This document shows, piece by piece, positions 46,505 through 62,870 of a stretch of DNA of 64,000 bases. The DNA is from Candidatus Latescibacterota bacterium. Lineage in GTDB: Bacteria > Latescibacterota > UBA2968. The position numbers were made by a program, and so were the translations under genes. The notes beneath the pieces were generated by a model. It had not been told where the DNA came from. It saw only the letters and a program-made list of their open reading frames with translations, and did not search any database. The DNA is taken from assembly GCA_965207885.1 (NCBI GenBank), contig OZ242311.1, forward strand, positions 4,032,001 through 4,096,000, read 5' to 3'. Position 1 is the first letter of the stretch, and each line of letters starts with the position of its first letter.

Positions 46505-46588
46505 TCAGGGTTATAGGAATAACAAATATCAATCACAGGCTTGAACACAAGCCTTAAATACTCCACCAAAAGGGGGAATGCCAAGCCT

Positions 46589-47527
46589 ATGATAGATGAA
46601 CTGAGTAAAATTCGCCATGCGCGTTTTCGTATGGAGATGGTGGCGGTTGACCGCTTAAAATTGCCGTCCTATAAAGGATCGACCTTTCGAGGAGCTTTTG
46701 GGCATGCGTTCAAAAGGCTGGTGTGTGTCAAGCGGGATATGGACTGTTCGACGTGTCTGATCTGCGCCCAGTGCGTTTATTATTATATTTTTGAGACACC
46801 GTTTAGCGGTGGGGAAGATAGCCGAGGTTACGCTTTTGCGCCACATCCGTTTGTGATTGAACCGCCCGGTGAGACGCGCCAGATTTACGAGATGGGCGAT
46901 GATCTACCCGTCGGCCTTGTTCTGGTGGGGCGGGCACTGGATTCTCTGCCGTATTTTATTTATGCCTTTGAAGAAATGGGACATCGGGGCTTGGGTACAG
47001 GGCGCGGCAAAGTTGCGCTGAAGCGGGTTGTTGCGCTGAGTGCGGCGGGCGAACAATGCATTTATGAGGCGGATACGGGCATATTGGATCTGGATTACCC
47101 GGTTTCCACGGGGTTGTCCAGTGGAGAAGAGATCGGGCCACTATTGCATCTGCGGTTGCAGACCCCGCTCCGTCTCAAAACACGGGGGCGCTATGCTTCT
47201 CGACTCGATTTTTCCTTGCTGGTGCGTGCGCTACTGCGGCGCATTTCAGATTTGACGCGCTTTCATTGCGGTGCGGAACTGGAGCTAAATTACGATCAGT
47301 GGATTGCGCGGGCAGAAAAAGTGCAGACTGCGGCGGTGAATACGCGCTGGTACGATTGGGAGCGGTATTCATTGCGCCAGGACCAAAAGATGAAATTGGG
47401 CGGTCTGGTGGGCGATGTGGTTTTTACCGGGGATATAGAGCCGTTCATGCCGCTTTTGCGCCTGGGCGCAGACTTGCATGTGGGCAAGGGCACGGGCTTT
47501 GGCCTGGGGCGTTATGAGATTTTGTGA
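46589..47527 (+). CDS. cas6: CRISPR pre-crRNA processing endoribonuclease Cas6
   Basis: GSTFRGAFG, Cys cluster, PHPFVIEPP, C-terminal HVGKGTGFGLGRY G-rich loop. Confidence 0.93.
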   Translation: MIDELSKIRHARFRMEMVAVDRLKLPSYKGSTFRGAFGHAFKRLVCVKRDMDCSTCLICAQCVYYYIFETPFSGGEDSRGYAFAPHPFVIEPPGETRQIYEMGDDLPVGLVLVGRALDSLPYFIYAFEEMGHRGLGTGRGKVALKRVVALSAAGEQCIYEADTGILDLDYPVSTGLSSGEEIGPLLHLRLQTPLRLKTRGRYASRLDFSLLVRALLRRISDLTRFHCGAELELNYDQWIARAEKVQTAAVNTRWYDWERYSLRQDQKMKLGGLVGDVVFTGDIEPFMPLLRLGADLHVGKGTGFGLGRYEIL

Positions 47528-47534
47528 GGGATAG

Positions 47535-49436
47535 ATGGCGGACATACAGGACATGTTGCATCAGGCGCGACAGCATATCGAGGCAGAGGAATTTGATCGC
47601 GCCGAGAGTTTGTGCGCCGATGTACTGGTGACCGATCCGGTTAGCGTGCTGGCGCACCAGTTGATGGCGCGGGTGTGGCTGGGGCGGAACGAACCAGATA
47701 AGGTGCGCGACCGCATCGCGTATCGCGACCAGTTGCCCTGCGATGAACACTATGTCGAATGGGGTCTGATCGCCGAGGAGGTGGAGGCGTTGGAAACCGC
47801 GGTTCAGATCTATGAAGACCTGCTAAAACGGGCACCGGAAAATGGCGTGGTGCTCTACCGATTGGGCCTGATCTGTCTGGAACGCGGCGAGCGGGACAGG
47901 GCCGTGGGCCTGTTGCAGCGCGTCCTGCGGGTGAGTCCAGATCACGCTGCGGCTGCTTTTGAACTGGCGCAATGCTATGTCGAAGACGAGTTGTGGGGGC
48001 TGGCCGCAGATGCCTATGAGCGGGGCCTGGCGAGCGATCCGGATAATGAGGAGGCGCAGACCGCACTTCAGGTGGTGATGGCGCGGATGCGAGAGTTGGC
48101 GCAATTGCCCAGCAGCGAGGTGCCGTCTGGAGAGGGGGCCGCGCGGCGGATGCGGATCTTATTTGCCGGACGGGAAGGGATGCATGCGCGGCAGTGGATA
48201 GATGAGGATGGTCGGGTCGGGTACAGTCCGGTGCAGGAGCCGCTTGCCGATCATCTGCTCTCTCTGCATCTGCAAGGCTCGGCGACTTTGGGCGTGTACC
48301 CGGTGCGGGCAGATCAAACAGTGCTTTTTGGCGTTATTGATATCGATATCCGCAAAAGTGCCCTGAAAGCGGGCGAGGCAGGGCAGTCCGTATCTGATCG
48401 GCTTCAAGAGTTGGTGCTGGCCGACGCCCGGCGACTATCACGGCGGTTCGATGAATTACACCTGCCGGTCTATGTGGAAGACAGTGGATACAAGGGGGTG
48501 CATCTGTGGCTTTTTTTTGCGGAGCCGGTGCCCGCGGCAGTGGTGAAGCGTTTTTTAGAGGCGGTTGTCCAGCGGGTCGGTCCGCCTGGGCCAGAGCTTC
48601 AGTGGGAAGTTTTTCCCAAGCAAGAGCAAGTCGCTGAAGATCAACTGGGCAATTTGATCAAGTTGCCGCTGGGGATTCATCTGAAGACCGGGCGAAGGTG
48701 TTTGTTCACGGATTTGGAAGGGCAAGAATACAGCGACCAGGAAGGTTTCCTCCAGCGCATCCAGCAGGTCGAGCGACAGGCTTTTGAACAGGCGGTGTCC
48801 CGATTGGTGGCGCCACCTGAACAAGGTGGTGTTGCCGGGTCAGTGGAAACACTACGAGAAGCTTTTCCCGAGTACGAAGCCCTTTTCAAGGGGTGTCCGG
48901 TGCTGGTCGCTCTGATGGAAAAAGCCGTGATTACGCATCATCTCACGCACGATGAACGCCTGGTGCTCAAGTGCGTTTTGGGACATTTGGACGATGGTGG
49001 GCACCGGCTGATCCACGGTATTATAGGGCATTGTCTCGATTACTCCGAGAAGATTACGCAGCAGCAGATTGAGCGCACGCCGCCCTATCCCATCAGTTGT
49101 CCCAAGATTCGCCAGCGTCTCCCCGAGGTTACTTCGACGGTCAACTGCGCGTGTGTGTTCGATTTGCCCGAAGGGGGGTATCCTTCTCCGCTGTTGCATC
49201 TCGATGCAACTTTTACCAGAGGTCGGTCACAAAGTGCAGACCGCCACGGGCCTCTGGTGGATAAATACGTGACTTTGCAGCGGGATTACCAGCGGTTGAA
49301 ACGCGAGTTGGCGCAACTCGAAGACGATTTGTACTATGCCATTACCTCGGCAGATCAGGATGAATTGCGGGCCGGTGGATGGATTTTGCGCCGGGATGGA
49401 GACGGGCGTTTCCAGGTGGAGGTTGACCTGGGGTGA
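47535..49436 (+). CDS. CRISPR-associated primase-polymerase (TPR + AEP + Cys-rich C-terminal domain)
   Basis: N-terminal TPRs; AEP motifs VIDID, SGYKGVHLW, GNLIKLPLG; C-terminal GCP..HCLDY..PISC..CAC; GTGA overlap with cas1. Confidence 0.88.
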   Translation: MADIQDMLHQARQHIEAEEFDRAESLCADVLVTDPVSVLAHQLMARVWLGRNEPDKVRDRIAYRDQLPCDEHYVEWGLIAEEVEALETAVQIYEDLLKRAPENGVVLYRLGLICLERGERDRAVGLLQRVLRVSPDHAAAAFELAQCYVEDELWGLAADAYERGLASDPDNEEAQTALQVVMARMRELAQLPSSEVPSGEGAARRMRILFAGREGMHARQWIDEDGRVGYSPVQEPLADHLLSLHLQGSATLGVYPVRADQTVLFGVIDIDIRKSALKAGEAGQSVSDRLQELVLADARRLSRRFDELHLPVYVEDSGYKGVHLWLFFAEPVPAAVVKRFLEAVVQRVGPPGPELQWEVFPKQEQVAEDQLGNLIKLPLGIHLKTGRRCLFTDLEGQEYSDQEGFLQRIQQVERQAFEQAVSRLVAPPEQGGVAGSVETLREAFPEYEALFKGCPVLVALMEKAVITHHLTHDERLVLKCVLGHLDDGGHRLIHGIIGHCLDYSEKITQQQIERTPPYPISCPKIRQRLPEVTSTVNCACVFDLPEGGYPSPLLHLDATFTRGRSQSADRHGPLVDKYVTLQRDYQRLKRELAQLEDDLYYAITSADQDELRAGGWILRRDGDGRFQVEVDLG

Positions 49437-50431
49437 TTCTCTATGTGACAGATCAGGGTACGGGGGTTTATCGCCGCGGAGAGCGGTTGCAAGTTCGGCG
49501 GCACAAGCAAGTGCTGACCGAGGTGCATTTGCACGATCTGGAACAGGTGGTGCTTATGGGGCAAATCGCGCTTTCTTCTCAGGCGATGAGCACGTTGCTC
49601 GAAAAAGGGGTGGATACGGTTTTTCTGAGTACCAATGGACGGTATCGGGGGCGGCTGGTTGGCCCAGCGCGGCGCAATGTGGTGTTGCGACAAAAGCAGT
49701 TTAAGTGCTATGAGGATGAGCAGTTTCGTCTGCGTGTGGCGCGGGGTGTGGTGGAGGGTAAACTCCGCAATATGCGGACGCTGCTCATGCGTCTGGCGCG
49801 GCGGCGCAAGGTGGATGTGGGCACGGTGGCGCATAGATTGCGCCGGTCAATTCAGCAGGTGGGACAGGCGACCAGTGCCGAGTCTCTGCGCGGGATTGAG
49901 GGGGCGGGCACCGCGGCTTATTTTGGTGTGCTTGGGGCTTTTTTCCCCGAAGGATTCGCGTTTCAGGGGCGCAACCGCCGTCCGCCGAGAGACCCGGCCA
50001 ACGCGCTGCTCAGTTTTGGGTATGCCCTGCTGGGCAATAGCATAGAAGGCGCGATTTATCTGGTTGGTCTCGATCCGTATCTGGGTTTTCTGCATGTGGT
50101 TGATTATGGGCGTCCTTCTCTATCACTGGACTTGATGGAGGAGTTTCGGCCCGTGCTGGTGGATGCGCTGGTGCTGGATTTGATCAACCACAATCGGGTG
50201 CAGAGCGCGGATTTTGAAGCGCGGGATGGGGGCGTATTTTTGCAGGGCGAGGGCCGCAAGCGGTTGATTGAGGGGTACCAGCGACGTCTTGAAGACCGGG
50301 TAACTTATCCCGTGGGGGGCGAGCGGGTGGAGCGGATTTCTTACCGGCGTTGCCTCGAATATCAGGTGCGTCGATTGGCGCGGGTGATTATGGGCGAGGA
50401 GGCTCAGTACAGGGCTTTTCTGGTGCGTTGA
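49433..50431 (+). CDS. cas1: CRISPR-associated integrase Cas1
   Basis: LRGIEG..A..YF, RNRRPPRDPANALLSFGY, GFLH, DLMEEFRP. Confidence 0.97.
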   Translation: MILYVTDQGTGVYRRGERLQVRRHKQVLTEVHLHDLEQVVLMGQIALSSQAMSTLLEKGVDTVFLSTNGRYRGRLVGPARRNVVLRQKQFKCYEDEQFRLRVARGVVEGKLRNMRTLLMRLARRRKVDVGTVAHRLRRSIQQVGQATSAESLRGIEGAGTAAYFGVLGAFFPEGFAFQGRNRRPPRDPANALLSFGYALLGNSIEGAIYLVGLDPYLGFLHVVDYGRPSLSLDLMEEFRPVLVDALVLDLINHNRVQSADFEARDGGVFLQGEGRKRLIEGYQRRLEDRVTYPVGGERVERISYRRCLEYQVRRLARVIMGEEAQYRAFLVR

Positions 50432-50474
50432 GATGTTTGTAACGATCCGCAGGCATGTCCCTGCGGGTGTAAGC

Positions 50475-50522
50475 AGGGATGGACACAGAGAAAAAATGAG
50501 GGATGGACACAGAGAAAAAATG
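50475..50522 (+). repeat. Perfect 24-bp tandem duplication at the cas2 start
   Basis: AGGGATGGACACAGAGAAAAAATG occurs twice in tandem. Confidence 0.9.
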
Positions 50523-50795
50523 TTTGTGACGATTTGTTTTGATATCAGTTCTGACCGCACGCGCCGGCAGGCGACCCGGGTGCTGGAGGCTTATGCAACG
50601 CGGGTGCAAAAGAGTGTGTTCGAATGTCGCATTGCCGAACGGCAATTTGTCGAGTTGCGGCAGCGCATGAGTCAAATTGGTCTGGCTGAAGGCGATCTGG
50701 TGCGCTATTATACGCTGTGTCGCGCATGCGAGCGTAAGATCGAGTTTACCGGCGGTTCTCCCCCGCAGGATGAAAAAGATCATCTGATTGTTTGA
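50520..50795 (+). CDS. cas2: CRISPR-associated protein Cas2 (alternative in-frame start at 50433)
   Basis: ICFDISSDR, RVQKSVFEC, D.VRYYTLC..C. Confidence 0.95.
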   Translation: MFVTICFDISSDRTRRQATRVLEAYATRVQKSVFECRIAERQFVELRQRMSQIGLAEGDLVRYYTLCRACERKIEFTGGSPPQDEKDHLIV

Positions 50796-51054
50796 TAGCT
50801 GGTCTTTGCGACCCGGATTAGAAAGGGTTTGTCAATATGGCGCATTGAATTTCTACTGCTTTTAATCGGTGGGAATTAGCTACGTCACTTAACCCTATTC
50901 TGGGTCGCGAATTTGTAATTTCTTGTCCTACAATAGATTAACAGAAAGGGACTTCTATGATTGAAGAAAAATGGATGGATAAACGCCTGTCAATATGGCC
51001 TGAGTCGCAAAAGCACCTCAAACAGACTGTGACTCAACAAGTTAGAAAGGAGGG
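50796..51054 (+). promoter_or_regulatory. CRISPR leader
   Basis: AT-rich non-coding region between cas2 and repeat 1; inverted motifs TTTGCGACCC / GGGTCGCGAA / GAGTCGCAAA and direct repeat TGTCAATATGGC (50830, 50988). Confidence 0.75.
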
Positions 51055-51248
51055 ATTGGAAGGAATTGACCCGCTCATAGAGGATTGAAACTTAATATAC
51101 CTGTTGGCAGGTTATCGGAGTGGTCATTTGACGAATTGGAAGGAATTGACCCGCTCATAGAGGATTGAAACTTAATATACGTTTCATGGATCTTCCGGTC
51201 GCCGGCGTAGATTGGAAGGAATTGACCCGCTCATAGGGGATTGAAAAC
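51055..51248 (+). CRISPR. Mini CRISPR array: 3 repeats (37 nt), 2 spacers (43 and 39 nt)
   Basis: ATTGGAAGGAATTGACCCGCTCATAGAGGATTGAAAC at 51055 and 51135, degenerate trailer copy at 51211; ends in the ATTGAAAC handle. Confidence 0.92.
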
Positions 51249-51269
51249 TTCGTCATCAAGGGATATGTC

Positions 51270-52991
51270 GTGCAGATCGCGGAACCCGTATTGAAAGCCA
51301 TCCAGGACAGAGGCAGACGAGGATTGCCCCTTGAGAATATTTATCGACACCTCTACAACCCGGACCTCTTTTTACGCGCTTATGGACGGCTGTATCGAAA
51401 AGCTGGCGCGACCACACAGGGCATTACAAAAGAGACCACAGATGGCATGTCTATGGCGAAGATCAATGCCCTCATCGAGGCATTCCGCTGCGAGCGGTAT
51501 CAATGGACGCCTGTTAAGCGCATCTATATTCCCAAAAAAAATGGGGGGCGGCGTCCGCTCGGCATACCGGTTTGGTCTGATAAACTGGTGCAAGAAGTTA
51601 TGCGATCTTTGTTGGGCGTCTATTATGAACCCCAATTTAGTGACCTGTCCCACGGCTTTCGGCCTCAACGGGGCTGCCATTCTGCACTTGCGGAAATTTT
51701 GAGATGGAAAGACATAGACTATTTTATCGAAGGCGATATCAAAGCCTGTTTTGACAGTATTGATCACGAATGTCTGCTGTCTATTTTGAAGGAGAAAGTC
51801 CGCGATGATCGGTTTATCGACTTAATTGGGGATTTGCTCAAGGCCGGATGCGTCGCGTACGGGCGTTACGAATCTACTCCGAGTGGTACGCCACAAGGCG
51901 GTCCCATTAGTCCACTTCTCGCAAACGTTTATCTCGACAGGTTGGATGAGTTCGTCGAAAATACGCTTGTGCCTCTTTACACAACGGGCGAGAAACGCAT
52001 AGAGGCGAGTTGGAAGACGCCAGAGGAGTTGCAGAGGGTTCTGAAGATATTGGATACGCAGGGTCCCGATTTTAGACGTATTCGCTATATCCGATACGCC
52101 GATGATTTTTTGATCGGTTTTACCGGGCGAAAGGCAGAGGCTAAAGAGATCAAACAATGTCTCAAAGAATTTTTGCAAGAGACGCTGAAATTGGAACTGT
52201 CAGAGGACAAAACCTCAATTACCCACAGCCGCAAAGAGACAGCACACTTTCTCGGATACGAGATCAAGAATCTGAATGGGTCAACGCAAAATACACTGAG
52301 CCTGAGTGTGCCGAAAAAAGCCGTGAAAGAGAAGTGTAGCTTGTATCAAAAACGCGGGCGTGTCACATACTGTGCCGAACTGCTGCATGACAGCGATTGG
52401 GAAATCATAAGTCTTTTTCAGAGTCGATATATCGGATATGTGCAATACTATATTTTCGCACACAATGTCCATATCTTAAACGTATTGCGCTGGGTGATGA
52501 GTGCGTCTTTGCTCAAGACGCTTGCGAAAAAGCATAAGACACATGTGAATCAACTTATGAAGCAGTATAAAGCGACTATCCAGACGCCTTATGGCCCGCT
52601 GACGTGTTTGGAGATGCCTGTTTTGTGTGAAGGTGGGCAATTGAGGACGGCGCGTTTTGGTGGCTTCTCTCTCAGGCCGAGGGAAGGCATACCCCTTGCA
52701 GACCGCGACCCAAACAGGGAGATGCGGTGCAAGGGGATAGAACTGATCCAGCGCTTGCTGTCAAACCAGTGCGAATGCTGCGGCGCAACAGGCCAGGTGG
52801 AAGTGCATCATGTCCGAAAACTTGTCCATAGAGAAGGGCAAGTATCAGAGCACACATGGATGCGAGACATGGTTACACGAAAGCGAAAAACCCTTATCGT
52901 GTGCAAAACATGCCACCAGGCAATCCATTCTGTGACAAAAACAAGGAAGAAAAACAGGTATCGGGGAATGCACGCAACACAACGCCAGTAA
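51270..52991 (+). CDS. Group II intron-type reverse transcriptase/maturase with HNH domain; no flanking intron RNA recognised
   Basis: YIPKKNG..RPLGIP..DKLVQ, SHGFRP.R, EGDIK.CFD.IDH, GTPQGG.ISPLLAN, RYADDF, maturase domain, C..C..EVHH..C..CH..IH. Confidence 0.92.
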   Translation: MQIAEPVLKAIQDRGRRGLPLENIYRHLYNPDLFLRAYGRLYRKAGATTQGITKETTDGMSMAKINALIEAFRCERYQWTPVKRIYIPKKNGGRRPLGIPVWSDKLVQEVMRSLLGVYYEPQFSDLSHGFRPQRGCHSALAEILRWKDIDYFIEGDIKACFDSIDHECLLSILKEKVRDDRFIDLIGDLLKAGCVAYGRYESTPSGTPQGGPISPLLANVYLDRLDEFVENTLVPLYTTGEKRIEASWKTPEELQRVLKILDTQGPDFRRIRYIRYADDFLIGFTGRKAEAKEIKQCLKEFLQETLKLELSEDKTSITHSRKETAHFLGYEIKNLNGSTQNTLSLSVPKKAVKEKCSLYQKRGRVTYCAELLHDSDWEIISLFQSRYIGYVQYYIFAHNVHILNVLRWVMSASLLKTLAKKHKTHVNQLMKQYKATIQTPYGPLTCLEMPVLCEGGQLRTARFGGFSLRPREGIPLADRDPNREMRCKGIELIQRLLSNQCECCGATGQVEVHHVRKLVHREGQVSEHTWMRDMVTRKRKTLIVCKTCHQAIHSVTKTRKKNRYRGMHATQRQ

Positions 52992-52996
52992 TCCAT

Positions 52997-53020
52997 GTAG
53001 GGGCGAGGCATGCCTCGCCC
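52997..53020. repeat. REP-like palindrome
   Basis: GTAG followed by the perfect 20-bp palindrome GGGCGAGGCATGCCTCGCCC. Confidence 0.7.
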
Positions 53021-53081
53021 GTGCCCTTCATTGCGGTGTGGTATTGCGTTGCACCACCCAGGCTGAACATAAGGAGAATTC

Positions 53082-53228
53082 ATGGTCAAACAGATATTAT
53101 TATGTACCGTCGGAGGCTCTCATCAACCGATTCTCGAAGCAATTAAATCATCGTCACCGTGCCATGTCTGTTTTTTTGCACGGACCGCCTCCTTCACATC
53201 CCATAACCAGCGAAGGAACAATCCATGA
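53082..53228 (+). pseudogene. N-terminal stub of a second TIGR02710-type CARF gene
   Basis: AAGGAG RBS; MVKQILLCTVGGSHQPILEAIKSSSPCHVCFF matches the next gene's MSETILLCTVGGSHQPILAAIETNSPKLVCFF; frameshift in a T7 run. Confidence 0.8.
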
Positions 53229-54487
53229 GCGAAACCATCCTTCTTTGCACCGTTGGCGGCAGCCACCAGCCTATCTTGGCGGCCATTGAAACAAACAGTC
53301 CGAAACTCGTTTGCTTCTTCTGTACCGAAGGACAGGCTGGTTCCGAGGTTCAAGTAATCGGCGAGGGCAAAGTTATCAAGGACAAACTGCAAGACAGCAA
53401 AGCAACATTGCCCAATATCCCCACCCAAGCGCGAGCGCAGGGTTGGAATGGTACCTATAAGATAAAGATCGTCCCTCCAGACGATTTGGATGGGGCCTTC
53501 TTTGTTATCCGAAATACGATCCTAAAATTGGCCCATAAGTATCCCAATGCCGAATTGGTGGCTGACTACACCGGTGGCACAAAGACGATGACGGCGGCCT
53601 TGGTCAGTGCTGTGTTGGATACTGAGCGCGTCGAGCTCCAACTCGTTGCTGGCGAACGCAGAGATCTCATACAAGTGATTCCGGATACCGAATTGTCGGT
53701 CGTCGCCAGCGTGACCCGATTGCTGATTGATCGTGACATCAAGCAATTTCTGGCCGCTTGGCGTCATTTCGGCTACCACGAAGCAGCAGAAGGGCTGAAG
53801 AAAGTGCGTATCGCGGCTGATTCGCCCGACTTTGAGCGTTTGCACCAAGCATATATGTTGAGTCAGGGCTTAGCATTGTGGGATAGATTCGATCACGCTG
53901 GCGCACTTGAAAAGATTCAACCGCTGGAGCAAATTAAAGCTGCCTATCCGTATATGATGCCGACGCTGGGACAGCTTAAGGCAGACCGAGAACAAGCTCT
54001 CTTATTCGACCTCTGGTTAAATGCCGAGCGGCGTGCGGCCCAGGGTCGCTTTGACGATGCGATTGCGCGGTGGTATCGCATGATGGAGTGGACAGCCCAA
54101 TGGCAACTCCGAACGAAACTCAACGCCGATACCGGGGACTTTTCAGGCGATTTGCTGCCGAAGCAGGTTCAGGCGGCCCCGGATTCAGATGGTAAAATTA
54201 AAATTGGGCTTTGGAAGGCATGGCAAGTCGTAAAATACCGTTGCGAACTATCGGGTCCTGCTCAGGACTTCATCAAAAAGCACGGATCAAAGCTCCTCGA
54301 TTTACTCGAGATTCGCAACAATTCGATACTGGCTCACGGTTTTTGTCCTGTGAGTTCTTCGAACTGGCAAGAGGTGCATAATTGGACACAAGATAAATTC
54401 CTGCCCGTTCTGCGTACCCTGGCCGAAGAAGTGGGCTTGAAAAGCGAGCCGAAACAACTCCCGACCGAATTTCCAGAGAGCATCTGA
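53225..54487 (+). CDS. TIGR02710-family CARF-HEPN type III effector
   Basis: LCTVGGS, DYTGGTKTM (CARF), WDRFDH..A, RNNSILAHG (HEPN). Confidence 0.9.
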   Translation: MSETILLCTVGGSHQPILAAIETNSPKLVCFFCTEGQAGSEVQVIGEGKVIKDKLQDSKATLPNIPTQARAQGWNGTYKIKIVPPDDLDGAFFVIRNTILKLAHKYPNAELVADYTGGTKTMTAALVSAVLDTERVELQLVAGERRDLIQVIPDTELSVVASVTRLLIDRDIKQFLAAWRHFGYHEAAEGLKKVRIAADSPDFERLHQAYMLSQGLALWDRFDHAGALEKIQPLEQIKAAYPYMMPTLGQLKADREQALLFDLWLNAERRAAQGRFDDAIARWYRMMEWTAQWQLRTKLNADTGDFSGDLLPKQVQAAPDSDGKIKIGLWKAWQVVKYRCELSGPAQDFIKKHGSKLLDLLEIRNNSILAHGFCPVSSSNWQEVHNWTQDKFLPVLRTLAEEVGLKSEPKQLPTEFPESI

Positions 54488-54641
54488 ATTGTGTCCGACA
54501 ATCACAGCCTTGCTGATACGTTTGTACGAGGCGGATTGTCACTGATGAGACACAGAATGGTGTGAATGGTAGAGATATATTGTCAGGGCACAAGTAGCCG
54601 TGCTGGCAGATTTATTTTGACAAAAATGAGAGGGTAATCAG

Positions 54642-56246
54642 ATGGCAACAGGCAAAATCATGAATTGGAAAGGAAAATACGGATTTATTGAAAATGATGC
54701 TGGAGGGCAAAATGTTTTCTTACACATCAATGAAGTTGATCAAGACGATAGAGGATTCTTGACTAAGGGCACAAGAGTTGATTTCGATATACAAGAAGTG
54801 CCTCAAGGATTGGCAGCAAATAATGTTCGTTTCTTGAAATTTCACAATCCATATACCTTTGTCCCTACCCCTCCGCGTCAGGATGCAATAAAAGCGGGTG
54901 GGTTTGCTGGCGATTTTGATCCCTTGGAGTGTGGTCTCAGCCATGCATGTCTTGATCCGGATCTATGGACAGGACATCTGCCAATCAAGCTGACCACGGT
55001 CACACCCCTGGTATTGCCGAAAACTGATGGTGAAGAACGTTTGTCAACTGAGCACCAAACTTATGATGTCCTCAACTATTTGCCGGAATCGTCCCTGCGC
55101 GGCATGTTGCGAAGTGCCTACGAAGTGGTGACGAACTCGCGCTATAGTTGTTTTAGCAACGATGACCGATTGAAGTTTCGTTTAGGTCGAGAAAAGAGAA
55201 CATATGAAAAGAGTCCCAAAGACCTTCTCGACTTCTCACTAAGATCAGCGGATAAGATGAGTAAGCTGTCTCCCGCGGATCGTTTGTTCGGGTGGGTACC
55301 TCAGCAATCCGGTAGCGACCAGGGGTACAAGGGCCGCATACGGGTCGTTTGTGAAGATGATGCACGATCTGAGATTATCCAACACTTTGATGGTAAAGAC
55401 TTGCCATTGACGATCCTCGGAGAGCCAAAACCCGCACAAGGCCGTTTTTATGTTGCTAAAGATAAAAAAGGTACGCCGCAAGAAGATGGCATTAGCAAGG
55501 AGCAAGCTGGCTACAGTGGAGGTAAGGGCTTACGAGGTCGGAAGCAATACTGGCACCATAAAGGGCTGGAAGCGGGTCAGGCACGAGACTATTGGAAATC
55601 GTCAGTAGATGACCGAACGCAGCAACAAAACAATGGTCGGTATCAAGAATATCGCCGTCCCAATAAAAATGGAGAGCCACAAAAAGATGCTCAAAACCGC
55701 AGCATTACCGGATGGATTAAGCCAGGTACGGTTTTTAAGGCATCCCTATATGTACAAAATCTGCAAACTGAAGAAATTGGTGCATTGCTTTGGCTGCTAT
55801 CGCTTCCCTCAGACCATTACTTCCGGCTGGGATATGGCAAGCCATTGGGTTTTGGCAGCGTGAGGATAGAGGTTGATGAGGAGCGATGTGTAAATGGATG
55901 TCTGCCACTCGGCACTGGCAAAGATTGGAAAAGCTACTATGCAACCTTTTATACTTCCCCACCGGCAACACTAAATGAGGACCAACGAAAGGGCTGTATT
56001 CAAAAATTTAAGGCCAGTATGGTAGCTGCGTACGATTCAAAACATTTTAATAATCTACCTTTTATCAGCGGATTTCTGAAAGTTCTAAAGGGTCCAAAAA
56101 AAGATGCACCCATTCACTATCCACGGCTGGAATACAAACCCAATCCCAAAGGCGAGAATTTTCGATGGTTCGTCGCAAATGAAAAAGGTAAAAGACTTGC
56201 GCTTCCAGCGGTTACAGCGAAGAAGGGGCTACCTTATCAACCCTGA
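54642..56246 (+). CDS. cas7: TIGR03986-type Cas7 (RAMP) with N-terminal cold-shock domain
   Basis: CSD KYGFI..VFLH..GLAANNV; FHNPYTFVP, SSLRGMLRSAYE.VTNS, LSPADRLFGWV, LRGRKQYWH, LGYGKPLGFGSV. Confidence 0.87.
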   Translation: MATGKIMNWKGKYGFIENDAGGQNVFLHINEVDQDDRGFLTKGTRVDFDIQEVPQGLAANNVRFLKFHNPYTFVPTPPRQDAIKAGGFAGDFDPLECGLSHACLDPDLWTGHLPIKLTTVTPLVLPKTDGEERLSTEHQTYDVLNYLPESSLRGMLRSAYEVVTNSRYSCFSNDDRLKFRLGREKRTYEKSPKDLLDFSLRSADKMSKLSPADRLFGWVPQQSGSDQGYKGRIRVVCEDDARSEIIQHFDGKDLPLTILGEPKPAQGRFYVAKDKKGTPQEDGISKEQAGYSGGKGLRGRKQYWHHKGLEAGQARDYWKSSVDDRTQQQNNGRYQEYRRPNKNGEPQKDAQNRSITGWIKPGTVFKASLYVQNLQTEEIGALLWLLSLPSDHYFRLGYGKPLGFGSVRIEVDEERCVNGCLPLGTGKDWKSYYATFYTSPPATLNEDQRKGCIQKFKASMVAAYDSKHFNNLPFISGFLKVLKGPKKDAPIHYPRLEYKPNPKGENFRWFVANEKGKRLALPAVTAKKGLPYQP

Positions 56247-56290
56247 AGCAATGCCGTTCGCAATTCCCAGACAAAGAGGAGACAATAAAT

Positions 56291-57382
56291 ATGGGAACAC
56301 AACTTATTTTTACTGTTGGAACCAATCCACTACCGATATGGGTGGCGTGGCATCATTTGAAAGACAAACTATCAGAGCCTGTTCAGGTTCGACTTGTGCA
56401 TACAGCGGACACAGAAGATGAAAAAGATCGGCTAAAAAAGTATTGTCACGGTGCGGCCTTTCTTGATCCGATTCAAACGTCCGACGGCGACCCTCGTACT
56501 GTACGTGAGGATATCAGGACTATCGCTGATGGCCTCTCAGACGAGACCAACCTTCTGCACATTCACTACACTGGCGGTACCAAGGTGATGGCCGTTGAAA
56601 CTGTCGCCGCCCTTGAAGCCACTTTACCGAAAAATATCCACTTGGATACCTCCTATCTGGACCCACGCGCCACATCAGGTCCCGCTATCGTGAATCGGGC
56701 TGGGAAAACTTGGGTCCGAGATACTCGTAAGAATATTACTGCTGATCTTGCTCGTATCGCTCTCCTCAACGGTTTTACTCTCGGGCCGTTTAAACACAAA
56801 TATTGGGATAAAGAGGCCAACTGCTATGAAACGGACGACTGTCCGGCTCCTGGAATACCCACTCAAAATCAATTGGACAAGGGCAGAAAGGCTATTACAG
56901 GCGGTGGGCGTATCACATGTTACAAACTCTTAGAACACGGTGCCTATGCCGCATTTAAGGATGCATTGGAGGAGGTTTCTACGAGCAATTCAAATCGTAA
57001 TAACTATAAACTTTTCCACAATGTGTATGTCCGACGTATAAGAGCATCACAGAGTGCAAAGCCCTTCGAGCTTGATGTAGTAGCAGTACTGGGGTATCAG
57101 ATTGTCGTTGTTTCATGTACTCTTGATGGGAGTCATGACAAGATAAAACAAAAAGGTATGGAGGCCATTTTGCGAGCAAGGCAACTCGGTGGTGATGAAG
57201 CGCGGGCCATTGTTTTGTGTAGTGCTCACCAGAATGATGCTAAACTCATTGAAGATGAGTTAAGGGATGAAATGGGTAGTGCGAGCGAGCCTTTACAAGT
57301 TTGGGAAAGGAATAGGTGGCCTATGCCTATGTTGTCAGATGCGTTTTATCAATATCTGCGTAATGACCTGCATTGGAAGTGA
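56291..57382 (+). CDS. Can2/Card1-like CARF + PD-(D/E)xK-type nuclease (DUF1887-like)
   Basis: VGTNPLP, HYTGGTKVM, FELDVV...VSCT, RARQLGGDEAR. Confidence 0.85.
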   Translation: MGTQLIFTVGTNPLPIWVAWHHLKDKLSEPVQVRLVHTADTEDEKDRLKKYCHGAAFLDPIQTSDGDPRTVREDIRTIADGLSDETNLLHIHYTGGTKVMAVETVAALEATLPKNIHLDTSYLDPRATSGPAIVNRAGKTWVRDTRKNITADLARIALLNGFTLGPFKHKYWDKEANCYETDDCPAPGIPTQNQLDKGRKAITGGGRITCYKLLEHGAYAAFKDALEEVSTSNSNRNNYKLFHNVYVRRIRASQSAKPFELDVVAVLGYQIVVVSCTLDGSHDKIKQKGMEAILRARQLGGDEARAIVLCSAHQNDAKLIEDELRDEMGSASEPLQVWERNRWPMPMLSDAFYQYLRNDLHWK

Positions 57383-57396
57383 GTGGGGATATACTT

Positions 57397-59031
57397 ATGT
57401 CAAATTCTCTTTATATGGGTCAATGTGTTGCAGTCTTCGGTACTGCGAGTCTTCAGCGATACATCTTTCAGAGCAATCGACTGAAAGAGAATATCGGTGC
57501 GTCCTATCTCGTAAAATACTGGCTTGACGAGGGCTTGGTTGAGGCCATAAAGCAGTCTGGCTGTACGGTTGATACGACTGTGTGGGATGAGTACAAAACA
57601 AATCCCTCAATGTCTCGGCCTGCAAAGCCAGTGGACATATCGAAAGATGTCAATTTCATCTATGTCGGTGGGGGTAATGCTGCGTTGCTGTGCAAAAGCC
57701 AGGAGACTGCTAAAGATGTTGTCAAAATATGGAGCCACAAGCTACTCGAACATGCACCTGGACTCCGGGTGGCCGTTGGGTATGCGGATGTTGAGAACTC
57801 ATTGGCTGAGGCATATCGTTCCGCGTTAGAAAACCTGTCACAATGCGAGGAAGCATTGCCGTTTGGGGACACCTTGTACAGCTTACCCGTTGTTCGCACT
57901 TGCACGACTACTGGGCTTCCTGCGAGCGTACCCAGCAAAGAAGAGAACAATGAGGAGGAGTGGATATCGCAGTCTGCGTCGAGCAAGCGAAATCAAGTCG
58001 GCTCTGAACGCAAGTCAGGTGCTGCCCAAAGGGATATTAGACGCGAATTCAAATCGGTTCTGCAAAGAGGTCAAAACTTTGCCATTGAACTCGACAAACT
58101 GGGTGGGCGTAAAGGAGAATCGCATATTGCTGTCGTGCATGCTGACGGCAATGGAATGGGCAAGCATCTTATAGATGTGGTGAACAGTGCAGAAGATGAT
58201 GAGGAATTTCTCCATCACATCCGAGCATTTTCGGCCTCTGTGTCGCGTCTGTCCCAGAGTGCCCTACAGGAGACATTGCAATATCTACAGGAAGAGTTGC
58301 CGAACCTGAAAGGGGATTTGTCGCTGGGAGAAGAAAAAATTTTTCCTTTGCGTCCTATCGTGTACGGAGGCGATGATTTGACATTTGTATGCGATGGTCG
58401 CGTGGGTCTCGATCTGGCGGCCTTCTATTTGAAGGCGTTTTCCAAAGGCAAGATCAAAGTCCGTGGTAAGGATGAACCCGTTGATGCCTGTGCGGGGGTA
58501 GCCATTGTGCCTACAAAATTTCCCTTTGCCCGCGCGTATCATTTTGCTGAAGAACTCTGCGGATTGACCAAGTCATACCTTCGTGAGAGAGATTTAACTG
58601 GCAGTTGGCTGGATTTTCAGATTATCCAGGAAGGTATCACCCGATCCATTTCGGCACTGAGAGCCGCACAGTATCGTAGCTTTGAGGGACAAACACTGCA
58701 TCAGCGTCCTTATCAGGTACCGGAAAAATGGGACGTTTTTGTTGAAATTTTGAAGGAATTTCAAGCGTCGTGGCCCCGCAACCGTGCCAAAGGGCTTTTG
58801 CAGGCTCTAACGCAGGGACCTGCGGCAACGCAACGCTTCGTTGAGGGCGCACGGTGGCGTGATGTGAAGTTACCATCGTCTTCGGTAAGTGGTACAGGTT
58901 GGACGGGTGGAGATCCTCCTGATCGCACCACGCCGTATTTCGATCCGCTCGAAACACTTGATTTCTATCTGGAAGTGAAGAAACCAGCAAAAAATGGCGA
59001 GAAAGCAGGTAAGGAGATCAAGAATGACTGA
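57397..59031 (+). CDS. cas10: Type III-D Cas10 (palm domains, GGDD intact, no HD domain)
   Basis: QRYIFQSNRLKENIGAS, YVGGGNA, HADGNGMG, YGGDDL. Confidence 0.92.
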   Translation: MSNSLYMGQCVAVFGTASLQRYIFQSNRLKENIGASYLVKYWLDEGLVEAIKQSGCTVDTTVWDEYKTNPSMSRPAKPVDISKDVNFIYVGGGNAALLCKSQETAKDVVKIWSHKLLEHAPGLRVAVGYADVENSLAEAYRSALENLSQCEEALPFGDTLYSLPVVRTCTTTGLPASVPSKEENNEEEWISQSASSKRNQVGSERKSGAAQRDIRREFKSVLQRGQNFAIELDKLGGRKGESHIAVVHADGNGMGKHLIDVVNSAEDDEEFLHHIRAFSASVSRLSQSALQETLQYLQEELPNLKGDLSLGEEKIFPLRPIVYGGDDLTFVCDGRVGLDLAAFYLKAFSKGKIKVRGKDEPVDACAGVAIVPTKFPFARAYHFAEELCGLTKSYLRERDLTGSWLDFQIIQEGITRSISALRAAQYRSFEGQTLHQRPYQVPEKWDVFVEILKEFQASWPRNRAKGLLQALTQGPAATQRFVEGARWRDVKLPSSSVSGTGWTGGDPPDRTTPYFDPLETLDFYLEVKKPAKNGEKAGKEIKND

Positions 59032-61396
59032 GTATTTTTTGCAAATCACGCTGCAATCGCCGCTGACCTCTGCCGCAGGTGAGGGACGTGTGGGCGTGGT
59101 TGACCGTGACATAGCTTTTGATGACCTCGGGCTACCTATTCTCCCCGGCAGGCGACTCAAAGGGCTGTGGCGCGAAGCCTATCGCGATGTCGCCGATGCG
59201 TGGGCTTTATACGGTGAATCTTCAATACCGGTAGAGCATATTTTCGGCGAGTCAGGACAGGGAGATGCTTGCATGTTTGTTGCCAATGCTGAATTGCAAG
59301 AGGCGTCTTCTTTAAGAGAATGGTTGAGATATTTACAACATGATAAAAAATTTCACCTTGACGATGTTGTGGAGCACTTTGCCTCTGTGCGTGCCCAGAC
59401 CGCGATTGACCGCAGGACTGGCGCAGCACTTGATAATACGCTCCGTCTCACCCGTACCTTGAAAGCAGATCTGGTATTTCGAGCGCGTGTGCGCTTCTTT
59501 GAGGCTCCAGATGATGAGTTGCTCAGTGCCCTATCTCTGGGATCCGCGGCTTTGCAACACATGGGAACAGCGCGGACCCGCGGTCTCGGCAAGGTCCGTT
59601 GTCGTTTGCTTGTACGCGATGCGAGTGGGCAATGCCGGGACTTGACAGACGAAGTCCTGAGCAAAAATGCGCTTCCTTCAATTACCCAAACGGCCTCCAA
59701 TCAACCAGCCCAAACCTCAAAGGCTCATGTGACTTCCTCATCTCGTTCAACTTGTACGGTCCCCACCCACATATTGCGCTATCGGATTGTGTTGACAGCA
59801 CCAGCAGTTATCCCAACAGTAGATGGCGACCCGAATACTGTTGTGACCCGGAGAGATATTCCCGGAAGCAATATCTGGGGGGCTGCTGCCTATCGTTACC
59901 TGAGCCAAGCGAATCATACGCCTGAAGATGGTGCGTTTCGCCACGCCTTTCTCGATGGGGGCTTGCGATTCTTGGCGGCTTACCCAGAAGCAGATGATCC
60001 CGAAGTGTACAATGGAATGCCTCAACGCCTGATTCCCATTCCCCACTCAATACGCAAATTTAAGGAAGGCGAAGAACTGATAGATTTTGTGGAATCATCA
60101 CCAGGGGAGGATCCAATAAAGCGTCTTGATCGTCGATACGCTATCATTAGTGGAGTCAGTTTGAAAACACAAGCTGTCAAGACGGAATTGAATTACCATC
60201 ACGCCCGCGCCAGAGATCGTCGCATAGGTCGTGCTCTTGGTGCAATGGTTCCAGATGGCGGTGCCTTCTTCACGTATGAGGCCATCGAGGCTGGACAGTC
60301 GTTTCAAGGGGCTATCCTGGGTTCCAAGGATGATCTAAAAGCTCTGCAATCCTATTTAAAAGGGGGGCAGATAAGAATAGGACGGTCGCGTAGCGCACAG
60401 TACGGTGAGGCGGAATTTGAATGGATTGATGGTGCCCCAAAGGAATTGAGCAGGTTTGTTGAGTGGGATGGATTCGTTGAACAGCAGCCCGCCAGTGTCC
60501 CAAATTCTGGTGCGTGTCTTATCATCACCACCTTATCGCCCTTGTTGACCGTCAACGATTATGGGCATCCGGAGGCGCGCTTTCCCGAGCGTGAGTTGGC
60601 TAACGCTCTGGGGCTGGAGACTTCGGATCTCAGACTATCGCGCAGTTATACCCGCACAGATTTGATTGGTGGATATAATTCCCACCTGCGCCTCCCGCGT
60701 CAGCAATGGCCCGCTATCGCCTCTGGTAGTGTTTTTGTGTTTAAGGCTGAAAAAACACTTGATCAGGAACGTCTCTTGCAATTAGAACACAATGGCCTGG
60801 GGTTACGGAAAGGAGAAGGGTATGGTCGCATTGCTGTCAATCGACAGGGTAGCCTCGGTTTGTCAGGCTGCGAAGAAACCCAACTCGACAATCTCGATAG
60901 GCTACCCGATTCGCCAAACTCAGCGATGCCACAGAGTGTCCATGATCTGATATATGGCGTCGTGAGATCGCGTTGCCTAACTGAGATGCAGCAGCGTGCT
61001 ATAACTATCGCCAGGTCGAACGATAATATCCCAAAAAATGCCCTTCTTGGACGGATGCGTTTGTTTCTTCAACAGAACTCACGCGACGAAAGTTTGAGAC
61101 AACTACGTGATCCTGCAAAGGACCAACTAACGAAATATCAGATTGACATGAGTGGTTTCGGTATAACGGATGATTGGTCGCCGCAAATGACGATGTATGA
61201 ATTGTTCAAGAAGGCCTGGACAGAACCGGAGTCTCTAACGCGACAAATGATTGAAAGTCATGTCCATGAGGATATTGTCGAAGATGCCGACATGCGCCAG
61301 ACTCTAATTAACAAACTGGTTGCAGACGATAGCGCGGAGATGTGTACAGTGTTTCTCGATCACCTGCTTACAGCACTGCGCCGTAAATCAAAATAG
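59024..61396 (+). CDS. Cas7-Cas5(Csx10)-Cas11 fusion
   Basis: N-terminal RAMP LPGRRLKGL..GTARTRGLG; Csx10 IPGS.IWG, IGRSRSAQYG, GLGLRKGEGYG; helical C-terminal domain (Cas11 call is inference). Confidence 0.85.
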   Translation: MTEYFLQITLQSPLTSAAGEGRVGVVDRDIAFDDLGLPILPGRRLKGLWREAYRDVADAWALYGESSIPVEHIFGESGQGDACMFVANAELQEASSLREWLRYLQHDKKFHLDDVVEHFASVRAQTAIDRRTGAALDNTLRLTRTLKADLVFRARVRFFEAPDDELLSALSLGSAALQHMGTARTRGLGKVRCRLLVRDASGQCRDLTDEVLSKNALPSITQTASNQPAQTSKAHVTSSSRSTCTVPTHILRYRIVLTAPAVIPTVDGDPNTVVTRRDIPGSNIWGAAAYRYLSQANHTPEDGAFRHAFLDGGLRFLAAYPEADDPEVYNGMPQRLIPIPHSIRKFKEGEELIDFVESSPGEDPIKRLDRRYAIISGVSLKTQAVKTELNYHHARARDRRIGRALGAMVPDGGAFFTYEAIEAGQSFQGAILGSKDDLKALQSYLKGGQIRIGRSRSAQYGEAEFEWIDGAPKELSRFVEWDGFVEQQPASVPNSGACLIITTLSPLLTVNDYGHPEARFPERELANALGLETSDLRLSRSYTRTDLIGGYNSHLRLPRQQWPAIASGSVFVFKAEKTLDQERLLQLEHNGLGLRKGEGYGRIAVNRQGSLGLSGCEETQLDNLDRLPDSPNSAMPQSVHDLIYGVVRSRCLTEMQQRAITIARSNDNIPKNALLGRMRLFLQQNSRDESLRQLRDPAKDQLTKYQIDMSGFGITDDWSPQMTMYELFKKAWTEPESLTRQMIESHVHEDIVEDADMRQTLINKLVADDSAEMCTVFLDHLLTALRRKSK

Positions 61397-61415
61397 CAAA
61401 ATAAGGACGAATAGC

Positions 61416-62870
61416 ATGGCGAATACTAAGACCTCCAAGATTAAAGACACCATTGTGCGTCGTTTATATGCGCGAGGGAAGTGGAAGCTGGACAGTGTGG
61501 CGCACTTTGGTGGAGATGAAACAGGTATAGCAGATATGTGTCTCCTGCGGGATGCGGAAGGAAAACCCTTTATTCCAGCCGCATCTATCGCTGGCGTAGC
61601 GCGGAGTTTTCTGGCCCGGGTGAGTAAGCCCTGGACGAAATACCAAAAGGGGGATGAGGGCAAAATACTCAAACAGCTTTTTGGCGGAGCGGGCGAAAAG
61701 GATACTATGAGTGCCTTAATTGTTGCCGATGCTGCTTGCAAAAATTCCCAAACGTCAATCCGCGATGGCGTGCGCGTGGATACTCAATCGGGTTCTGCCG
61801 CTGAGGGGACAAAGTTCGATGTGGAAGTTGTCGAGCGCGGGGCTGAGTTTGAGTTGCGTCTGGAGTGCGTTATCCGTGATGGAGACGATAGCCAAGGATT
61901 GGAGAAGTTATTTTTAGCCCTCTTACATGGATTCAAAGCAGGTGAGATCCGATTGGGCGCACGTACCCGTCGGGGCTATGGACGCGGCAAGGTAGCGTCC
62001 TGGAAAATACGCGATTTGAAGATGAACGATCCAGAGGATGTTATGGCCTGGCTACGCGATAAGGTCTGTTCTCGTCCCGCGAGTGATTTGACACCATGTC
62101 CTTTGCCATCTGATCAACGACAATACTTCCGCCTTGAAGCAGATTTTATTCTGCGGACGTCTCTGTTAATCCGCAGTTCACCTTCTGATCCAAAATCTCC
62201 AGACATGGTTCATCTGCACTCTGCTGGAGAGCCTGTTGTTCCCGGTACATCCTTTGCCGGTGCATTTCGACATCGCGCATCCCTGATCGCAAGTACCATT
62301 GGCTGGCCTGAGGATTCGGTGAGTGAAATATTCGGCCCTGTGCATGAACAAGATGTCAAAGACCCACAAAAAGATTTGTGGGCAAGTCGGGTATGGATTG
62401 AGGAAAAGCTGGTGAAGAATGTGGAATCGCGGTGGCAGGATCGCGTTGCTATTGATCGGTTTACCGGAGGTAGTTTGCAGAGTGCCTTGTTTAACGAAAA
62501 ACCCATTTTCCCACAGAAATCTACGCCACATCTCAAGTTAAAACTGACGTTAGAAGAACCGGATGATGCGGAAATCGGCTTGTTGTTCTTAACTTTGCGC
62601 GACTTCTGGAATGGACATGCCGCTCTGGGCGGAGAAACGAGCAATGGTCGCGGTACTCTCCAGGGTTTTAAAGCTGAGTTGCAATTGAAGCGGCGCAAAT
62701 CGTCAAAGGCTGAGTGGGAGTTTTCGCAGTATAATAGCGGTATGACTCTTGTTGGGTGTAGTGGTGATGCTTCATTCTTCGAATGTTGCGTACAAAAAGC
62801 CCAATCGCCTTCTAAACATCCCGATGGATCACGGCGGCCTAAAAAAGAAAAGGTGACCACCGATGACTAA
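61416..62870 (+). CDS. cas7: Double-RAMP Cas7-Cas7 fusion
   Basis: IPAASIAG..LGARTRRGYG and VPGTSFAGAFR..AIDRFTGG..LGGETSNGRG. Confidence 0.88.
   Translation: MANTKTSKIKDTIVRRLYARGKWKLDSVAHFGGDETGIADMCLLRDAEGKPFIPAASIAGVARSFLARVSKPWTKYQKGDEGKILKQLFGGAGEKDTMSALIVADAACKNSQTSIRDGVRVDTQSGSAAEGTKFDVEVVERGAEFELRLECVIRDGDDSQGLEKLFLALLHGFKAGEIRLGARTRRGYGRGKVASWKIRDLKMNDPEDVMAWLRDKVCSRPASDLTPCPLPSDQRQYFRLEADFILRTSLLIRSSPSDPKSPDMVHLHSAGEPVVPGTSFAGAFRHRASLIASTIGWPEDSVSEIFGPVHEQDVKDPQKDLWASRVWIEEKLVKNVESRWQDRVAIDRFTGGSLQSALFNEKPIFPQKSTPHLKLKLTLEEPDDAEIGLLFLTLRDFWNGHAALGGETSNGRGTLQGFKAELQLKRRKSSKAEWEFSQYNSGMTLVGCSGDASFFECCVQKAQSPSKHPDGSRRPKKEKVTTDD

Follow-up and report, generated by a model that had tools for sequence, protein, structure and literature searches.

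An intron-type reverse transcriptase without a ribozyme, apparently domesticated, at the trailer end of a type III CRISPR array in Latescibacterota

When a gene for a complete group II intron protein is found directly downstream of a CRISPR array, does it represent the debris of a mobile element or a gene that the host has put to use? The question is raised by a stretch of 64,000 nucleotides (nt) from Candidatus Latescibacterota bacterium (assembly GCA_965207885.1, contig OZ242311.1, positions 4,032,001 to 4,096,000 of the forward strand; hereafter, the window), in which an open reading frame (ORF) encoding a reverse transcriptase (RT) of 573 amino acids (aa) extends on the plus strand from a GTG start codon at position 51270 to a stop at 52991. 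An earlier note, made from the sequence alone, had placed this ORF and the third, last repeat of the array correctly, with the GTG beginning 22 nt past that repeat, and had proposed that the RT was domesticated. On the combined evidence of Pfam matches, alignment, tree and selection, we describe 51270-52991 as a ribozyme-less RT that stems from a group II intron protein: no ribozyme accompanies it, the gene keeps a conserved position, its clade has a single origin among the proteins of live introns, and purifying selection acts on all four of its domains. The best reading of these observations is that the gene is a separately and fairly recently domesticated CRISPR-associated RT.

The protein has the architecture that is expected of an intron-encoded protein, namely, an RT domain (approximately residues 1-340), domain X, or the thumb (341-440), the DNA-binding domain D (441-495) and an HNH endonuclease domain (En; 496-560); the corresponding Pfam matches are RVT_1 (residues 87-332), Intron_maturas2 (356-433) and an AI2M-like HNH domain (501-549). 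The closest solved structure is that of LtrA, the Lactococcus intron protein (5g2x; 2.1e-92, 314 bits), and the Cas6-RT-Cas1 structure (7kft) is distant, at 52 bits. The match to TIGR04416 (277 bits) falls slightly below the cut-off of 300, and the sequence shares 53-54% identity with a protein encoded by a live intron of this genome. About 19 database proteins, mostly of 556-584 aa (range 541-639) and mostly encoded on long contigs, are 60-90% identical to this RT; outside this clade, identity does not exceed 54%, and the matches are ordinary intron proteins of approximately 595-605 aa, many of them on contigs of 2-3 kb. An alignment of 58 sequences, together with the Pfam matches, bears out the uninterrupted frame with YADD, PQG and HNH motifs described in the earlier note: PQG occupies residues 208-210 and YADD residues 276-279, both of them unchanged throughout, and D156, Y276, D278, D279, C501, E502, C504, H513, H514, C545, C548 and H549 are invariant. 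The loops before YADD and before the maturase domain, which had appeared to be shortened, are both truly so in the alignment. The whole clade lacks about 17-28 aa ahead of YADD, between RT blocks 4 and 5 (approximately LtrA residues 250-285), and a second deletion, of about 8-11 aa before domain X, marks the subgroup to which the RT of the window belongs; the fixed changes in the clade include the replacement of YRQ by YRH.

The first step towards an answer is to establish whether the intron RNA is indeed missing. The search with the Rfam group II models around the ORF that had been proposed beforehand was performed with permissive filters over positions 49500-54500 and gave no match to a group II family at E<=10; at the gathering score, there are zero group II matches in the whole window. 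Likewise, no group II match is present at the gathering score in the five orthologous loci (L012-L016) or, at E<=5, within 1.5 kb of the RT in these loci (L004-L008). For the 5' portion of the ribozyme (domains I-III), a lineage-specific nhmmer profile was made from 15 live introns; at E<=10, it finds nothing in the window or in the five orthologous loci, recovers the held-out introns L009 and L030 at 1.6e-86 and 3.5e-45, respectively, and, across the genome of the window (G000), matches only the two live introns that are discussed below. These two introns give 68 bits for domain V/VI right after the ORF, and domain V/VI lies directly 3' of the ORF, at 43-67 bits, in all 20 ordinary relatives tested, each with a complete ORF and 3' flank and drawn from 80 metagenome loci (mostly 40-53% identity); L009 and the Herpetosiphon intron considered below (L107) likewise carry it. 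The spacing points the same way. The 22 nt between repeat 3 and the RT start compare with the approximately 500-600 nt of domains I-III, and in L012-L015 the next gene begins about 12-50 nt past the RT stop, so that there is no space for domains V and VI. In the window, 91 nt separate the RT stop from a relic of the next gene, and these include a dispersed palindromic element (52991-53036, no strand assigned) that directly follows the stop and, in reads from several runs, has loose ends on either side. In a blastn-short search of the genome, this element gives 16 rows, which amount to about 8 loci including its own because a palindrome also matches reversed; it also recurs in reads of other organisms, and therefore the description of it as REP-like (resembling repetitive extragenic palindromes) is a fair one for what is a low-copy dispersed element. 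Thus, the group II ribozyme is absent in 6 of 6 orthologous RT loci, and both halves of the original claim, no intron domains 5' of the ORF and no domain V/VI after its stop, stand up to searches with working controls.

The second step concerns the position of the gene. Among 168 genomes of the phylum Latescibacterota, members of the clade are encoded in five genomes besides that of the window, in two families of one class; the RT proteins are 88% and 87% identical to that of the window within its genus and 67%, 63% and 61% identical in a genus of the other family. The genomic contexts thus comprise six loci, the window and L012-L016. The order Cas6-CAPP-Cas1-Cas2-array-RT, where CAPP is the CRISPR-associated primase-polymerase, is found in L012 and L013, and CAPP-Cas1-Cas2-array-RT in L014 and L016; L015 shows array-RT, its contig beginning inside the array. 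CAPP-Cas1-Cas2 is accordingly present in 4 of the 4 relatives' loci that extend far enough upstream, and in the window. The arrays of the relatives contain 15-56 repeats, all pointing towards the RT, and array and RT are oriented alike in all six loci; the array, of 0.5-4.7 kb, separates the RT from cas2, so the two are neither fused nor adjacent. The repeats of L013 are of the type found in the other family. Past the RT, a CARF gene follows in the window, L014 and L015, and other genes follow in L012, L013 and L016; because the genes downstream vary in this manner, the RT goes with the adaptation genes. At E<=1e-150, one match to the RT is present in the genome of each of the five relatives, and three are present in that of the window, namely, the RT itself and the proteins of the two live introns; the clade-type RT is therefore present in one copy per genome, always at the same syntenic site, unlike mobile introns with their multiple copies and sites. 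No longer, fused form of the clade is found among proteins of 1004-2865 aa, and a scan of metagenome contigs yielded no clade member, the best full-length match being at 53%.

Phylogenetic analysis places the origin of the clade. In a maximum-likelihood tree of 54 proteins, the 25 rows of the clade and the fragment P0036 form one branch with a support of 100 in the Shimodaira-Hasegawa-like approximate likelihood ratio test (SH-aLRT) and a stem of 0.51 changes per site, nested among the proteins of introns with a verified domain V. The ratio of nonsynonymous to synonymous substitutions (dN/dS), estimated by the Nei-Gojobori method, is 0.120, 0.148 and 0.124 for the RT in the three pairs in which dS is below saturation; by domain, it is 0.09-0.13 for RT, 0.06-0.13 for X, 0.10-0.15 for D and 0.19-0.31 for En, and, for Cas1 of the same loci, it is 0.08-0.11 over all ten pairs. 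For the pair L012-L013, the dS values of RT and Cas1 agree, at 0.22 and 0.23.

These values bear on the simplest alternative, that the gene is what is left, decaying and without function, of an intron once inserted into the array or next to it. Landings of this kind do occur. The genome of the window holds two identical live group II introns of 2.4 kb (L003, G000:C1:5763099-5767883, and L002, G000:C1:3114806-3119590), one of which interrupts a spacer of this genome's second array and runs antisense to the CRISPR RNA (crRNA); the interrupted spacer resembles the insertion site (5' exon) of the other copy at about 22 of 32 positions, counted on the flanks, so the intron seemingly homed into a target-mimicking spacer. 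Moreover, a related live intron (L107; 48% identity, domain V at 67 bits) is located beside type III genes in Herpetosiphon aurantiacus, where, as far as the cited account goes, the intron next to these genes is classed as a true intron (Toro et al. 2017). For the RT of the window, a remnant is nevertheless scarcely credible: the frame is intact in 6 of 6 loci, the catalytic residues are invariant, the start codon and the ribosome-binding site are retained, and dN/dS of 0.12-0.15, with dS ranging up to saturation, indicates purifying selection, not neutral decay. Taken together, the absence of the ribozyme in all six loci, synteny in two families, monophyly and purifying selection in four domains support well the proposal that this RT has been domesticated.

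A domesticated intron protein might still serve introns, acting as a maturase or RT in trans on ORF-less group II introns elsewhere in the genome. Domain X is indeed the best conserved of the four domains, as the above ratios show, but we consider this explanation very improbable. No domain V was found in three of five carrier genomes (G075, G140 and G133; 150 of the 300-400 first-look candidates were scored per genome), the domain V matches in the other two (G000 and G083, three in total) each have a protein of their own, and the 5' ribozyme profile matches only the two complete introns in the genome of the window.

The RT start is peculiar in lying so close to the array. The leader (50796-51054, plus strand), 259 nt between cas2 and repeat 1 (about 260 nt also in L013, L014 and L016), is followed by a mini-array (51055-51247, plus strand) of three 37-nt repeats that end in ATTGAAAC, at 51055-51091, 51135-51171 and 51211-51247; the third is degenerate, differing at 2 positions and ending in ATTGAAAA, and retains a short stem via a G-U pair. 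Repeats 1 and 2 are each followed by the same 9 nt, TTAATATAC, and the spacers are of 34 nt (51101-51134) and of 39 nt counting its 9 nt (51172-51210). The leader-proximal 34-nt spacer is identical to the organism's own chromosome (34/34). This arrangement is best explained by integration of the newest spacer, the second cut being made 9 nt inside the older one, so that 46 rather than 37 nt were duplicated. In Logan contigs, the 46-nt unit (the 37-nt repeat with TTAATATAC, window 51055-51180) appears at about double the neighbouring depth, and a Logan contig of 14,383 nt, from two runs of one sample, covers positions 51151-53400 without a difference, bridging the junction of repeat 3 and the RT; hence, the junction and the tiny array are not an assembly slip. 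A misassembly at the array/RT junction, which had been named as a possible objection, is ruled out by this spanning contig, although the runs may be from the source sample of this very genome.

Between the array and the GTG lies a linker of 22 nt (51248-51269, plus strand) that retains a conserved ribosome-binding stretch (..TCAAGGGATATGTC). Counted from the last repeat that can still be recognised, the RT starts after 22 nt in the window and after 69, 175, 276, 422 and 771 nt in the five relatives, where the intervening sequences include degenerate repeats and a hairpin along with a small ORF and part of a gene. The start codon is kept in all six loci, and upstream of it conservation is restricted to the last 19 nt or so, the ribosome-binding region; folding and alignment of positions -70 to +45 around the start revealed the ribosome-binding stretch only and no common hairpin. 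Because the 22 nt that were kept are approximately this conserved stretch and the gaps in the relatives are longer, direct contact between repeat and RT is peculiar to this genome, a derived state of an array that has collapsed to three repeats. Probably, the array shrank to a single old spacer and then gained one new, host-derived spacer, and the 22-nt contact is secondary.

This history affects a further proposal of the earlier note, namely, that the RT mRNA is the 3' tail of the precursor crRNA and that a Cas6 cut in repeat 3 leaves this mRNA with a 5' handle like that of a crRNA and couples expression of the RT to crRNA processing. Array and RT are co-oriented in 6 of 6 loci, the stem of repeat 3 is kept, and a promoter and terminator scan detected nothing terminator-like or promoter-like between array and RT in the window (such sites being overall no commoner than in shuffled sequences), so read-through from the leader is plausible in this genome. 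Coupling through repeat cleavage seems rather unlikely all the same, given the gaps of 69-771 nt in the relatives, with their inserted ORFs, hairpin and degenerate repeats, and an upstream conservation that does not extend beyond the ribosome-binding region. Since the abutment is not conserved, any such coupling would be a local accident of the collapse of the array rather than a conserved design.

If the RT contributes to spacer uptake, the spacers themselves could be informative. Self-matching spacers in general are roughly 1 in 250. Perfect matches to the host chromosome are found for 5 of about 165 spacers in the arrays analysed from five genomes that carry the clade, namely, 2 of 33 in G000, 3 of 31 in G140, 0 of 30 in G075, 0 of 17 in G083 and 0 of 53 in G133, where there is one near match (92%). 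The arrays concerned are that of the window (spacer 51101-51134), the second array of the same genome (G000:C1:5762650-5767320) and those of L014 and L016; the targets are an unknown ORF of 373 aa, dnaA (40/40), a transketolase subunit and a secreted CHU_C-domain protein, and the fifth match lies 257 nt downstream of a TIM-barrel gene on the same strand. Wherever a perfect match overlaps an ORF (four cases), it is in the mRNA sense, as is the near match. Sampling of host transcripts would give such a pattern, which is a weak and indirect indication.

On this evidence, we propose, as a reading that is probably, if by no means securely, correct, that the RT is a complete group II intron protein that has become a single-copy host gene in a type III-D-like locus and works with the adaptation module. 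Several observations weigh against it. A whole array lies between the RT and cas1, unlike in the fused or adjacent forms that have been described. The second type III locus of the same genome (G000:C1:5750333-5776929), with Cas6, CARF, a 31-repeat array and its own CAPP-Cas1-Cas2 (43-56% identical), has no RT of the domesticated kind, so such modules do not require one. The distribution is patchy, with the RT present in 2 of 20 other genomes in the window's genus and 3 of 31 in the other genus, and in one further Latescibacteria genome (L122 9300-10204) two degenerate repeats and the RT's first 68 codons are all that is left. The endonuclease domain is more weakly constrained than the others, and, by analogy with the known CRISPR RTs, no role would be implied for it. 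Between the window and L012, dS is 0.53 for the RT versus 0.29 for Cas1, so RT and Cas1 may at times have been inherited separately; this mismatch and the repeat type of L013 hint at recombination between modules. Finally, selection against type III autoimmunity would leave the same sense-only pattern among the self-matching spacers (n = 4 perfect and 1 near), whatever their source.

The separation of the RT from cas1-cas2 by the array and the lack of such an RT in the second CAPP-Cas1-Cas2 locus, along with weak matches to NCBIfam models of retron, Drt and Abi RTs (which stem from the shared RT fold), would also fit an independent defence or repair RT, akin to G2L4 or to the Abi/DRT enzymes, that resides in a defence island without a functional tie to CRISPR adaptation. 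We regard this as unlikely, though to be kept in mind: in 6 of 6 loci, spread over two families, the RT stands between array and effector genes although what lies on its far side varies, the active site is YADD, not YIDD or DN, and, in the L122 genome, the 68-codon stub (91% identity; no cas gene within 10 kb) is all that remains where the cas genes are gone, which argues that the RT was lost when the module was lost.

How the RT would work with the adaptation module can be outlined from its placement, its conservation and precedent, on which the functional reading rests. The intron RNA would have been lost long ago, after which the gene would have been inherited at the trailer end of the array, following Cas6, CAPP, Cas1 and Cas2. 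By analogy with the CRISPR RTs already described, the protein probably functions in the uptake of RNA-derived spacers: the RT would make DNA copies of invader or host RNA for Cas1-Cas2 to insert at the leader, and priming, second-strand synthesis or gap filling would fall to the primase-polymerase, with the retained endonuclease perhaps nicking or trimming DNA during uptake. A bolder version, which we think quite improbable, is that the clade is a living intermediate between intron and CRISPR component, in which the HNH domain nicks DNA at or near the array, the RT copies RNA from the resulting 3' end, as in target-primed reverse transcription, and CAPP completes the second strand, either for spacer uptake or for array upkeep; if true, this target-primed route would make adaptation mechanistically distinct from the known RT-Cas1 pathway.

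The genes that flank the RT and its array, all on the plus strand, fit a type III locus with its own adaptation module. Upstream are Cas6 (46541-47527; Pfam CRISPR_Cas6, 9.8e-20; syntenic in L012 and L013) and a CAPP of the TPR type (CAPP-TPR; 47535-49436), with 365 bits for NCBIfam NF040561 versus a cut-off of 200, Pfam AEP-TOTE and TPR matches, and orthologues that are 83-93% identical in L012, L013, L014 and L016. This primase-polymerase, with its TPR and AEP domains, forms an operon with cas1 (49433-50431; Pfam Cas_Cas1, 4e-101) and cas2 (50520-50795), the genes of which overlap or abut. In the window, cas1 and cas2, which abut in the relatives, are separated by an inserted dispersed palindromic element, multi-copy in reads and genome, and, after it, a tandem duplication of 24 nt in which the cas2 start codon lies (50445-50522, no strand assigned). 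The listed cas2 ORF starts at 50433, but the Pfam CRISPR_Cas2 match begins at residue 30 and the relatives align from residue 29-30; given the insertion and duplication, the listed ORF is 29 codons too long, and ATG 50520 is the probable true start. Downstream of the RT lies the relic of an older CARF gene, its first 32 codons or so (53083-53180; tblastn, 72% over residues 1-32), which resembles the N-termini of the CARF genes located past the RT of L014 and L015. The relic is located just upstream of a different, present gene for a CARF/Csm6-type HEPN protein (TIGR02710; 53225-54487; Pfam and NCBIfam), and thus the effector side of the locus has been exchanged. The type III-D-like effector genes (54642-63414) encode a cold-shock-domain/RAMP fusion (TIGR03986), an unknown protein of 363 aa, a short Cas10, a Csx10-like protein, a Csx7-like fusion and Csx19; Csx19 (67.5 versus 35) and Csx7 (115 versus 108) score above their cut-offs, and Csx10 (91 versus 177) and Cas10, recognised by palm2 only (3.4e-08), fall below theirs. 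In the fusion protein (54642-56246), the cold-shock domain (CSD) is joined N-terminally to the TIGR03986-family type III RAMP protein.

It remains to compare this RT with the systems that are already known. Group II-like RTs that have no intron RNA and are either fused to Cas1 or encoded next to it in type III loci take up spacers from RNA, as the cited passages describe (PMC8632793; PMC5541045), and the model outlined there is that a group II intron landed beside cas1, lost its mobility, co-evolved with Cas1 and was then fused to it (PMC8632793). Unfused CRISPR RTs are on record too, in clades 1 and 9 and in G2L2, for which the quoted accounts place cas1 31-501 bp downstream (PMC5541045; PMC2602772). 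With the RT-CRISPR systems of type III (Toro et al. 2017/2018; G2L1/G2L2, Simon and Zimmerly 2008; RT-Cas1, Cas6-RT-Cas1), the window shares a group II-like RT that lacks intron RNA and a type III locus with its own Cas1-Cas2. It differs in that its RT is far nearer to the proteins of live introns (LtrA at 314 bits versus 52 bits for 7kft, the one solved representative compared), keeps the maturase-type domain X, domain D and the HNH endonuclease, and stands after the array, at the trailer end, instead of next to or fused with cas1. The endonuclease is named as an extension of group II intron RTs only, in the relevant passage of one survey (PMC2602772), and the word 'HNH' occurs 0 times in PMC6013744, PMC5541045 and PMC5513706; in the literature searched, we found no description of an endonuclease-bearing, ribozyme-less RT in a CRISPR locus, although the supplementary tables of the RT-CRISPR clades, which were outside that search, may list relatives. 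The LtrA-like, endonuclease-bearing mobile introns agree with this RT in architecture, catalytic residues and nesting in the tree; unlike them, it lacks domains I-III and V/VI, is single-copy and syntenic, and carries the clade-wide deletion between RT blocks 4 and 5.

Two further comparisons concern the partner of the RT and its mode of domestication. RT-PrimPol fusions exist beside Cas1-Cas2 (PMC8211822), and, as far as the account of the CAPP-RT fusion extends (Zabrady et al. 2021, PMC8211822), the likeness consists in RT, PrimPol and Cas1-Cas2 being joined in one adaptation unit; the window, by contrast, has a TPR-type PrimPol, and its RT, of the full intron type with an endonuclease, is encoded by a gene of its own across the array, so that an RT and a CRISPR primase-polymerase, elsewhere known in fused form, are here paired as separate proteins. 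G2L4 and its relatives likewise are domesticated intron-type RTs that have no ribozyme and keep domain X; going by the portions of the source cited, however, these are not CRISPR-linked, and G2L4 has YIDD (10.1101/2022.03.14.484287) where the RT described here has YADD. The CRISPR RTs described so far have moved a long way from intron proteins; this clade would represent the earliest preserved stage of the published path and looks like an early stage in the takeover of intron RTs by CRISPR systems; the live intron inside a spacer of another array in the same genome would be the presumed first step caught in the act. The clade supports the view that CRISPR RTs had multiple origins, and it offers a tractable protein in which to study the changes that an intron RT needs for CRISPR adaptation and the use that an HNH nuclease has there. 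In sum, the RT of the window is of a known kind, a CRISPR-associated, ribozyme-less group II-like RT, and a distinct variant of that kind, with its endonuclease kept, its place at the trailer end and a TPR-type CAPP as its partner.

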